A stretch of 64,000 nucleotides of DNA from Nannocystis pusilla (GTDB taxonomy: Bacteria; Myxococcota_A; Polyangia; Nannocystales; Nannocystaceae), in NCBI RefSeq assembly GCF_051105105.1, contig NZ_CP185339.1; one strand, given 5' to 3'. The translations under genes and the position numbers were made by a program. Shown piece after piece: positions 32,779-39,491 of this stretch; the stretch's first letter is position 1; the number at the start of each line of letters is the position of its first letter. A model generated the notes under the pieces. That model had not been told where the DNA came from. It made no database searches and saw only the letters and a program-made list of their open reading frames with translations.

Positions 32779-32979
32779 TCAGCCCTCCGCCCCGCCCGGC
32801 TCTTCGTGCTCCCAGCGCACGATCGGCCGCCCGTGCAGCGGCAGGCGCGACCCGCTGTTCCCGCACTGCGGGCAGCGAAGCAGCTCCGGCGTCGGCATCG
32901 GCGCGCACGCGCTGCCCCGGCCCGCAATCACCTGCACTTCGGGACAGCCACAGCGCGGACACCCTGGCGCCGCGCTCAC
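32779..32979 (-). CDS. 66-aa zinc-ribbon / six-Cys small protein translationally coupled to the rSAM fusion gene (candidate substrate peptide or redox partner)
   Basis: A GTG start overlaps the TGA stop of the upstream rSAM gene (GTGA). It encodes VSAAPGCPRCGCPEVQVIAGRGSACAPMPTPELLRCPQCGNSGSRLPLHGRPIVRWEHEEPGGAEG, with 6 Cys including two CxxC pairs. It is the tail of track ORF 32779..33693. Confidence 0.45.
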   Translation of the reverse strand: MSAAPGCPRCGCPEVQVIAGRGSACAPMPTPELLRCPQCGNSGSRLPLHGRPIVRWEHEEPGGAEG

Positions 32980-37434: not shown

Positions 37435-39491
37435 ATGCGCTCGTCCGCCGCCCCACCTCCGGCCCGGCGCCTGCAGGCGGCGCTCGACGCCGGCGACCTC
37501 GACGCTCATGACCCGCGCCTCGGCGCCCGCGGCAGCCTGCTGCGCGCGGTCGCTCTGGCTCGCCACGGCCGCCTGGCCCAGGCCCGCGCGGCGGCCGAAG
37601 CTGCCCTGAAGGACAGGCCCCACGACGCCGCGGTCGCCCTCGCCGCCGCCGCCGTCCTGCGGGCCACCCACGACTATCAGCGCAGCCTCGACGCCCTCGC
37701 CGCCGCCGCCCGGGCCGCCCCCGCGGCCACCCGCGCCGCGGCCACCCGCGCCGTCGGCTACGCCAGCGCGCTCGGCTGGGAACGAGAGGTCGCGGCCGCG
37801 ATCGACCTCGGCCGCGCCGCCGATCCCACCGACCCGACTTGGGACGCCTTCGAGGCCCAGCTGCACCTGCGCAGCGGCGATCTCGAGCTCGCCATCGCCG
37901 CGGCCCGCCGCGGCCTGCAGCGCGCCCCCGAGTCGGCCAAGCTGCGCATGGAGCTGGCGGCCGCGCTGGCCCGCGCCGGCCACGATCACGACTGCGCCCG
38001 CGAAGTCGCCGCCGCAGTCCGCCTCGCCCCCGCCGACGACGCCGCCTTCTATCACCGCGCCGCGTCGTTCGCCCTGCTCGAGAGCGGCGACCTCGCCGGC
38101 GCCGCCCGCCACGGCCAGGCCGCGCTGCACCTGCGACCCGATGACCCGGCCCTCGCCCTCGCCCTCGCAGACATGTCCCTGTGGACAGGCGATCGCGCCA
38201 GCGCCCTGGCCCGCGCCGAGGCCGTCTCCGGCCCGCGCGGCCGCGCCGGGGCCCGACGGATCCGCGGCCAGCTCCTGCTCGCCGACGGCGACGCCGAAGC
38301 CGCCCTCCGCGAGCTCGAACTCGCCTGCGCGGTCCCTGACCCGGCCGCCGAGCTGTCGCGCGCCGAGGCCCTCATCCGCCTGCGCGCGTGGGAGCCCGCC
38401 CACGCCGCGCTCACCCGCGCGACCGCGATCGGCGACGGCTACCTGTTCGCCGCCTGGATGCTGCGCTTCCTCGCCGCCGCCGGCGAGCGCCCTGCCCCCG
38501 ACGCGCCCGTCAACCAGCGCCAGATCGAGGAGTTCGCCGAGGCCCTCGCCGAGGTCTCTCCGCGCGGTCAGGCCGCGCTCGCCGGCAATCGTCAGGGCCC
38601 GCTGGTCGAGGCCACCCGCGACGCCCTCGCGCGCATGGGCTGCAACCGCTCCGCCTTCGCCACCTATCACGACGGACATGTCCTTCGGCGCCTGTCCACA
38701 AGGACAGGTGTGCGCCACGCCTCGCGCCAGGCGCTGCAGACGATCCGCAGCGCCGACCCGGCCCGCGCCCTCGCCCTGCTCGACGCCGCCTGCGCCCGCT
38801 GGCCGCGCTCCTCGCTGCCGCTGGCCCACCGCGGCGAGCTGCGGATGTGGCTCGGCGACGACGCCGGCGCCCGCGCCGACCTCGAGGCCGCCATCGCCAT
38901 CAACCCGCGCACCCGCTGGGCCTACGTCGGCCTCACCCTCCTGGCCCAGCGGACAGGCGACCCCGCCCGCGCCCTCGCCGTGTCGGCCGCCGGCATCGCC
39001 CAGATGCGCGGCACCGTCGGCCCGGCCGTCTACGCCCACCGCGCCGGCGCCAGGGCGGCCACCGGCGACCTCGCGGGCGCCCTCGCGGACCTCGAGCACG
39101 CCGTCGTCAGCCATCCGGCCCGGATCGGCGCATGGTCGAGCTCGGCCTGACCTACGCGGCCGCCGGCGACCAGCCCGGCCTCGTCCGCGCCTTCGACCAC
39201 CTCCGCGCCCACGCCCCCGGCCTGGTGTCCGACGCCGCCGCGGCCGTGCAGCGACCTGCCTGGGGAGACATGTCCTTCACGCCATGCTCTAAAGACCAGA
39301 CGGTAATCCTCGCTGAAGCGCTGGCGATGCTCCGCGGCAACCGCTCCTCGACCTGCGTCACCTACGTCACCCGCGCCGACCAGCTCCGCACGGTCCCCCA
39401 CGGCCCCGCCGCCGCCCACCCGATGACGCGCATCGACGCCGACCTCACCGGCATCCGCACCATGCTGCTCCGCTCGCTCGGCGCGAGTTGA
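37435..39491 (+). CDS. TPR-repeat protein (1-nt frameshift near 39130), translationally coupled to the rSAM gene
   Basis: The ATG is 4 nt after the rSAM stop. Ala/Leu/Arg-rich TPR-like helical repeats run throughout. The last about 120 aa continue in the 38388..39491 frame after HPARIGA/MVELGLTYAAAGDQ. Three in-frame REP-like elements lie at about 38167, 38671 and 39265. Confidence 0.65.

Follow-up and report, generated by a model that had tools for sequence, protein, structure and literature searches.

The His-Xaa-Ser (HXS) system comprises the families HxsA, HxsB, HxsC, and HxsD, which received their names from Haft and Basu (as cited in PMC9062424). Its antiphage function has only recently been demonstrated, in Escherichia coli (Nat Commun 2026, PMC13128918), and its chemistry is still unsolved. 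The canonical system consists of four genes and is 99.7% Pseudomonadota; in E. coli, HxsB and HxsC are required both for cleavage of the precursor HxsA and for defense, HxsC binds HxsD, and mature HxsA carries +8 Da on one SHRSS motif, interpreted as +C/-4H (PMC13128918). Here we analyze a 64-kb stretch of DNA from Nannocystis pusilla (contig NZ_CP185339.1; hereafter the window, with positions counted from its first letter) that encodes two divergently transcribed radical S-adenosylmethionine (SAM) enzymes, a fusion enzyme designated F0 and its plus-strand partner, F1. In other organisms, orthologs of these enzymes share clusters with true HxsB, HxsD, and HxsA. With moderate confidence, we propose that F0 and F1, having become detached in Nannocystis, serve in trans as accessory maturases in an extended His-Xaa-Ser-type pathway.

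The likeness to HXS lies in radical SAM enzymes that act with the small HxsD protein on a precursor of tandem His-Xaa-Ser repeats. The clusters that contain F0 and F1 orthologs differ from the described system in their precursor, which is a leader followed by 8 to >70 His-Gly-Ser (HGS) repeats ending in Trp; in their enzymes, which add five to eight radical SAM domains and include no protein at the HxsC cutoff; and in their conservation, the genes being kept at housekeeping-like identity in Polyangia. The window differs further in holding only F0, F1, and a gene for a tetratricopeptide repeat (TPR) protein. Our literature searches found no paper describing a myxobacterial HGS-repeat variant or the extended (HGS)nW form. 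Because NCBIfam includes models for HxsC4 and for HxsD-like proteins, its curators seem to have met variants of HXS.

Hxs genes beside orthologs of F0 and F1

We analyzed 80 species-level genome loci with an F0 ortholog, in which genes were called and clustered and neighbors were recorded within 10 kb, and a second set of 80 metagenome loci from a scan seeded with distant F0 homologs. At least 80 species have a conserved F0-F1 pair. F0 orthologs are full length and 56 to 97% identical across Polyangia, and their hosts include Nannocystis, Enhygromyxa, Plesiocystis (two copies), Polyangium, Minicystis, and Sandaracinaceae; the closest to the F0 of the window is that of Nannocystis sp. RBIL2 (97%). 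Altogether, 257 protein clusters (50% clustering) match F0 at an E value of ≤1e-30, and homologs at 30 to 45% identity retain the two-core layout. F1 adjoins F0 in 51 of the 80 genome loci and is present in 41 of the 80 metagenome loci.

HxsB, HxsD, or an HxsD-like protein is encoded within 10 kb of F0 in 24 of the 80 genome loci, an HxsA precursor of the form leader-QHCSHGS(HGS)nW in 16, and at least one Hxs-type neighbor in 47. Individually, HxsB (TIGR03978) occurs in 20 loci, at 548.7 bits against a cutoff of 370 bits; HxsD (TIGR03976) in 23 (58.9 bits; cutoff, 50 bits); and the HxsD-like protein in 15 (67.5 bits; cutoff, 41 bits). An aKG-HExxH peptide hydroxylase, F5, is likewise a neighbor in 15 loci (92.3 bits; cutoff, 40 bits). 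Other recurring neighbors score below all NCBIfam cutoffs, namely F4, a radical SAM-methyltransferase fusion (19 loci), the HxsC-like radical SAM proteins F2 and F10 (∼310 to 350 amino acids), and the double radical SAM protein F8 (10 to 18 loci for each of these three). Among the metagenome loci, an Hxs core gene is found in 26 of 80, an (HGS)nW precursor in 21, and some Hxs-type neighbor in 60. By our own estimate, a random 20-kb window would catch the sole Hxs core of a 10-Mb genome ∼0.2% of the time. An earlier reading of the locus from its letters alone (the sequence-only reading) had been unable to place this architecture in a characterized peptide or cofactor pathway; that view no longer holds, since the orthologs cluster with HxsA precursors of the (HGS)nW type, HxsB, HxsD, and the aKG-HExxH peptide hydroxylase.

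The order and orientation of the Hxs genes vary between lineages, and their proximity to F0 has therefore been kept through rearrangements. In three Enhygromyxa loci (L018, L021, and L023), a TPR-F1-F0 series is directly followed by two F2 copies, F5, and F4 and then by HxsD and/or HxsB within the flank; in copy 2 of Plesiocystis (L024), F2, F5, and F2 come after three unrelated genes. Compact operons occur in two clearly different organisms. In L093 (63% G+C; F0 ∼38% identical), HxsD-HxsB-HxsA-F4-F0-F2 occupy a single strand, and in L167 (29% G+C; F0 ∼30% identical; HxsB at 458 bits), HxsD-HxsDlike-HxsB-HxsA-x-F4-F0 lie on one strand and are followed by three convergent HxsC-like radical SAM genes. 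The same families are also joined by domain fusion: nine representatives have F0 and F2 united in a triple radical SAM protein, P0137, P0148, and L087 have F0 joined to the methyltransferase half of F4, and F1 is fused to F8-like cores in other lineages.

The HxsA-type precursors of Polyangia carry a leader of ∼60 amino acids with a conserved LPSF(K/R)R-like motif, and the repeats between this leader and the terminal Trp are uninterrupted. Such precursors are encoded in genome loci L028, L030, L040, L042, L048 (two tandem precursor genes), L053, L063, and L068 and in metagenome loci L118, L120, and L146.

Other neighbors are more sporadic. In Plesiocystis pacifica (L001/L020, contig ABCS01000038), one of the two F0-F1 copies is accompanied not by Hxs genes but by a 587-amino-acid radical SAM protein and a 1,189-amino-acid ferredoxin-carbamoyltransferase fusion; a carbamoyltransferase also occurs in the distant locus L088. 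A metagenome-assembled genome from Polyangia (L005/L025, 1432-4927) adds a UbiA-family prenyltransferase, a 354-amino-acid radical SAM protein, and a radical SAM-AhpC/TSA (redoxin) fusion. A UbiA or lipid pathway was rejected because UbiA is found in only 2 of the 80 loci. Large kinase/TPR, WD40, FG-GAP, and SelO neighbors of F0 and F1 elsewhere were dropped as mutually unrelated.

Architecture of F0 and F1

F0 carries TSRGCPFQCAHC and a second CX3CX2C motif, CNNHCSFC, and Pfam detects two Radical_SAM stretches, which bears out the double radical SAM fusion of ∼800 amino acids recognized in the sequence-only reading (Table 1). The GTG start at 35375 agrees with the N termini of orthologs; cysteine positions in F0 refer to the 804-amino-acid translation of 32976-35390 and not to the 799-amino-acid protein. 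Across 38 orthologs, the invariant cysteines are those of both CX3CX2C motifs and four at the C terminus (C702, C746, C749, and C755). This pattern suggests two radical SAM clusters plus one auxiliary cluster, a single one because the invariant C-terminal cysteines number four. With a ratio of nonsynonymous to synonymous substitution rates (dN/dS) of 0.06 to 0.20 over its last 334 codons, F0 is intact and under strong purifying selection within Nannocystis.

In an AlphaFold2 model of F0 (mean predicted local distance difference test score, 82.9), the N-terminal half is predicted to have class B architecture, a Rossmann-like domain of alternating strand-helix elements followed by a CX3CX2C core. 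The best matches of this half in a Foldseek search of PDB were AprD4, MgmA, MiaB, CysS, TsrM, TokK, and OxsB. The alignments to AprD4 and to the class B enzymes MgmA, CysS, TsrM, TokK, and OxsB cover the N-terminal domain plus the first core, with E values of 5.5e-14 to ∼1e-8 but sequence identities of only 12 to 18%. The first core also gave profile matches to AprD4 (54 bits) and MgmA (40 bits) and sub-cutoff NCBIfam matches to the B12-type radical SAM families BzaD, ladderane-B12, and Sden_1168. F0 departs from all six of these enzymes in carrying a second radical SAM core, which none of them has, and from the B12-binding class B architecture in that PF02310 (B12-binding) is not significant. 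In Pfam, neither PF02310 nor PF13186 (SPASM) matched F0 or F1 at an E value of ≤0.01; in two distant F0 homologs, PF02310 scores 27.8 and 31.6 bits, below its threshold of 32.1 bits. AprD4, the best structural match, is not known to use cobalamin, and cobalamin use by F0 can therefore not be inferred from the fold. Of the cobalamin-binding class B enzyme claimed in the sequence-only reading, the architecture is thus resembled in the structural model, while cobalamin binding is unproven.

The C-terminal half of F0 matched BlsE, SuiB, MoaA, viperin, SkfB, and PqqE best in the same structural search, and by sequence BlsE and PqqE are the closest solved relatives of its second core and of F1. F1 is indeed a paralog of this second core, 31% identical over 229 amino acids (E = 7e-34) and with GGEPT[LI]HP, TNGR, and FS[VI]HG in common. 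It consists of an N-terminal core (C28/C32/C35), a CX5CX2CX5C group at residues 279 to 294 (C279-X5-C285-X2-C288-X5-C294), an Ala-rich linker, and a C-terminal domain with a second group (C591...C636-X2-C639-X5-C645-X3-H649). These CxxC/Cx5Cx2Cx5C motifs, already pointed out from the sequence, are invariant in 28 orthologs, all of which retain the radical SAM motif and two further four-ligand groups ∼300 residues apart. A profile search of PDB sequences with F1 matched the N-terminal core only. Together, F0 and F1 hold three radical SAM cores and conserved ligands for about three further clusters.

Like the SPASM/twitch enzymes PqqE, SuiB, SkfB, BlsE, and MoaA, the second core of F0 and F1 have invariant C-terminal Cys groups that contain CX2CX5C. 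The SPASM label given to both enzymes is nevertheless unproven, as there is no PF13186 match and no 7- to 8-Cys motif straight after the core. Where that motif serves two auxiliary clusters, F0 has four cysteines, enough for one, and F1 has two groups that are ∼300 residues apart, with the Ala-rich linker between them and His as the last ligand of the second group. Among curated NCBIfam families, HxsC4 and HxsC outrank every other on the second core of F0 and on F1. HxsC4 (NF038332) scores 106.2 bits on F0 and 108.1 bits on F1 against a cutoff of 500, and HxsC (TIGR03977) scores 70.3 and 85.5 bits, respectively, against a cutoff of 267.9. No NCBIfam model attains its cutoff on either protein and literature searches found no paper on these enzymes, which agrees with the earlier description of a divergent, uncharacterized pair of paralogs.

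Layout of the window and neighboring genes

Because the G+C content of the window is ∼72%, we picked real genes by third-position G+C. The resulting coordinates (Table 1) confirm two large radical SAM genes that diverge from a short spacer. This spacer contains no match to a sigma-70-type consensus, and a scan for sigma-70 promoters and intrinsic terminators was likewise empty. An Rfam scan of 28000-42000 gave no match, hence no cobalamin or SAM riboswitch, and a tRNA scan found none. Pfam, NCBIfam, and PADLOC scans of the four locus proteins returned only generic radical SAM, TPR, and viperin-like matches and passed no family-specific cutoff.

TABLE 1 Features of the F0-F1 locus, with positions in the window
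Feature	Position	Strand	Description
66-amino-acid open reading frame	32779-32979	minus	Zinc-ribbon-like, CPRCGC...CPQCG, six Cys
F0	32976-35375	minus	799-amino-acid double radical SAM fusion; GTG start at 35375
F0, N-terminal Rossmann-like domain	34716-35360	minus	B12-binding-domain-like (AlphaFold2 model, Foldseek); approximate boundaries
F0, first radical SAM core	34071-34715	minus	C247-X3-C251-X2-C254 (804-amino-acid numbering); approximate boundaries
F0, second radical SAM core	33081-33983	minus	HxsC-like; C493/C497/C500 and C-terminal C702/746/749/755 (804-amino-acid numbering); approximate boundaries
Divergent intergenic spacer	35376-35433		Exactly 58 bp, read directly
F1	35434-37431	plus	665-amino-acid radical SAM protein, paralog of F0 second core
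TPR protein gene	37435-39491	plus	ATG 3 nt past F1 stop; Pfam TPR matches; split into two frames here

The TPR gene was correctly placed next to F1 in the sequence-only reading. Relative to three Nannocystis genomes (L006, L007, and L008), it has a 1-nt deletion at ∼39135 (GG versus GGG), so that it reads in one frame over 37435-39150 and continues in another over ∼39135-39491, the last position being the end coordinate of that earlier reading. TPR orthologs follow F1 in 10 of the 80 genome loci, all of them in Nannocystaceae; the arrangement is kept in this family and not beyond it. Frame changes relative to N. punicea orthologs affect three genes, those for the TPR protein (∼39135), an S9 peptidase (∼42305-42333), and a repeat protein (∼30700-30800), and may be indel errors in the assembly or recent pseudogenes. 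Since three neighboring genes are frameshifted, possibly by assembly indels, the TPR frameshift deserves caution. Both radical SAM genes are intact despite the frameshifts nearby.

The repeat protein (30137-31499, minus strand) is rich in Gln, Lys, and Gly; it has a hydrophobic, signal-peptide-like segment at its N terminus and QxIGK and DQGFGKDV units at a 12-nt periodicity. Its gene lies just upstream of a TGase_elicitor (PF16683) homolog (28285-29544, minus strand), and every Nannocystis locus keeps the two together, while no other genus does; the pair is suggestive of a transglutaminase that acts on a Gln/Lys-rich matrix protein. HxsA, too, consists of repeats, for which reason we considered this protein as a substrate of F0 and F1, and we rejected it as found only in Nannocystis and always followed by the TGase_elicitor homolog. 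A 1.3-kb noncoding stretch separates the repeat-protein gene from the 66-amino-acid open reading frame and contains a tandem array at 32102-32399 (4.3 copies of a 71-nt unit, 86% matches; no Rfam match).

Substrate candidates and competing explanations

The sequence-only reading had drawn attention to the 66-amino-acid open reading frame, either as a substrate of radical SAM chemistry or as a zinc-ribbon partner. As described there, the frame contains six cysteines (positions 7, 10, 12, 25, 36, and 39), and its GTG start overlaps the TGA stop of F0 as GTGA. Third-position G+C in this frame is 0.87. Five further species of Nannocystis have the frame open in this place with all six cysteines, at 76 to 86% amino acid identity, and its dN/dS among Nannocystis is 0.3 to 0.6, F0 being much more constrained. 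The CPRCG and CPQCG knuckles are conserved; the best Pfam match is Zn_ribbon_ISL3 (19.1 bits; threshold, 25.5 bits), and other zinc-ribbon families match at E values of 0.01 to 1. Judging from these features, the frame probably encodes a real, genus-specific small zinc-ribbon protein, which may be a partner of F0. Conservation across myxobacteria did not materialize: the six-Cys frame is absent downstream of F0 outside Nannocystis (74 loci scanned). In Nannocystis exedens DSM 71 (L007), the first 28 codons are duplicated (12466-12549) just upstream of the full copy (12579-12776).

We consider it very unlikely that this peptide is the substrate of the adjacent fusion, acquiring thioether or methyl groups in a self-contained locus resembling those for ribosomally made peptides that are modified posttranslationally. 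Its coupling to F0 through the GTGA overlap and its maintenance in six Nannocystis genomes, with dN/dS below 1, would suit such a role, but a family-wide substrate should be conserved with its enzyme, whereas this frame is restricted to a single genus and F0 and F1 persist in the other Polyangia, and outside that class, in its absence; for a family that spans phyla, it therefore cannot be the conserved substrate. Its cysteines are arranged in two CPxCG knuckles, as is typical of zinc ribbons, its only matches in Pfam are weak ones to zinc-ribbon families, and it has neither leader/core organization nor repeats. It is the (HGS)nW precursor that accompanies F0 in different lineages, and because relatives of F0 and F1 lie in operons that mature this His-Gly-Ser repeat peptide, the small Cys-rich gene is probably not their target. 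Of the two roles originally offered for it, confined as it is to the window and five further species, the zinc-ribbon partner is the more likely one.

A peptide-modifying role, which the sequence-only reading had proposed alongside cofactor modification, is the best reading of F0 and F1, with a repeat peptide rather than a Cys peptide as the probable target. In the accessory-maturase model, a ribosomal precursor consisting of a leader, (His-Gly-Ser)n, and a terminal Trp would be processed by HxsB, HxsD, and an HxsC-like radical SAM set made up of F4 (the radical SAM/methyltransferase fusion), F0, F1, and the smaller paralogs F2 and F10. Each radical SAM core would cleave SAM, and the resulting 5'-deoxyadenosyl radical would remove hydrogen from the repeat peptide. 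If it binds cobalamin, the class B-like module at the N terminus of F0 may transfer methyl groups and so add carbon, and the HxsC-like cores with their auxiliary clusters would be responsible for oxidation or cross-linking. The F0-F1 pair of Nannocystis, along with its TPR partner, would have been separated from the remaining Hxs genes and would work in trans, its substrate being encoded at another place in the genome, with the 66-amino-acid zinc-ribbon protein as a Nannocystis-specific accessory and not a substrate. The model draws on the observed domain make-up of the enzymes, the conservation of their cluster-binding cysteines and of the pair, and its association with Hxs genes; the substrate at the window's own locus would be the one indicated by the neighborhoods of orthologs.

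Several points weigh against this model. The 64-kb window contains no HxsA, HxsB, HxsD, F2, F4, F5, F8, or F10; it has no (H.S)x3 run in any frame, and tblastn with HxsB, HxsD, and HxsD-like representatives found nothing in it. The link of the window to HXS thus runs through its orthologs only, by way of the recurrence of Hxs core genes in both locus sets, the L093 and L167 operons, and the domain fusions, and every direct test of the window was negative. Neither HxsC-like core attains the HxsC cutoff. About 40% of the genome loci have F0, alone or with F1, and no Hxs-type neighbor within 10 kb, and distant loci including L087 and L088 lack HxsA, HxsB, and HxsD and instead carry glycosyl- and carbamoyl-transferase-like genes. 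HxsB from cultured Nannocystis was absent among the best 120 matches in two lists, but these lists are uninformative on Nannocystis because they also missed the known HxsB of Enhygromyxa salina (L018 and L021). No chemistry is known for any member of the F0/F1 family. The instance in the window is a detached fragment without its substrate, and since the substrate gene is absent from the window, F0 and F1 must act in trans or on something else.

One such possibility is a substrate other than a peptide (for example, a sugar, a nucleoside, a lipid, or an intermediate of a cofactor), with proximity to Hxs genes reflecting pathway context or a shared pool of radical SAM enzymes. We regard this as unlikely. 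The closest solved relatives of F0 and F1 act on small molecules, AprD4 as an aminoglycoside diol dehydratase and BlsE as a cytosylglucuronate decarboxylase; this similarity is remote, however, at 47 to 68 bits. Nannocystis and many other loci have the pair by itself, its conservation is housekeeping-like at 56 to 97% identity, and small-molecule enzymes do appear beside it, including the carbamoyltransferases of L001 and L088, a glycosyltransferase with polytopic membrane proteins in L088, and the UbiA prenyltransferase of L005. These neighbors are nonetheless sporadic, the carbamoyltransferases having been seen only in L088 and on the one contig of L001/L020 and UbiA in the 2 loci noted above, whereas Hxs core genes are found repeatedly, in 24 of 80 and 26 of 80 loci, and also in operons of organisms with 29 to 75% G+C. 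The neighbors that recur are directed at peptides, namely HxsB, an NCBIfam peptide maturase, and the aKG-HExxH peptide hydroxylase. It is also conceivable, but quite improbable, that the Nannocystis pair has been repurposed after separation from or loss of the Hxs core, F0 and F1 now modifying some other protein target in concert with the TPR and new zinc-ribbon proteins. The coupling of the TPR gene to F1 in Nannocystaceae only and of the zinc-ribbon frame to F0 in Nannocystis only would fit this history, as would the presence, in all Nannocystis loci, of other genes where Enhygromyxa and Plesiocystis have Hxs genes after F0, with F0 still under strong purifying selection. Against it, we found no candidate target, the repeat protein nearby is a more natural partner for the transglutaminase-elicitor homolog beside it, and the Hxs genes may simply lie elsewhere in the 11- to 13-Mb genomes of Nannocystis.

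The family described here ties Hxs to a much larger enzyme set and to a much simpler, nearly all-repeat precursor. A broader proposal, which we put forward tentatively, is that an undescribed, much enlarged form of Hxs exists in Polyangia and in some unrelated bacteria of low G+C content. Its enzymes, with up to ∼8 radical SAM domains and with a peptide hydroxylase, SAM methyltransferase domains, and a B12-type module among them, would make a heavily modified polymer out of poly(His-Gly-Ser) of 8 to >70 repeats. That these genes are so very highly conserved would suggest a core cellular role rather than a sporadic phage defense island, and the set of F0, F1, TPR, and zinc-ribbon proteins may have a new substrate in Nannocystis. 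Hundreds of proteins labeled just "radical SAM protein" gain context from these associations. At the locus itself, the experimental focus shifts from the six-Cys reading frame to (HGS)nW peptides, and the compact operons of L093 and L167 are tractable systems for HxsB- and HxsC-type action on His-Xaa-Ser motifs. The family is a good experimental lead into unsolved radical SAM chemistry.

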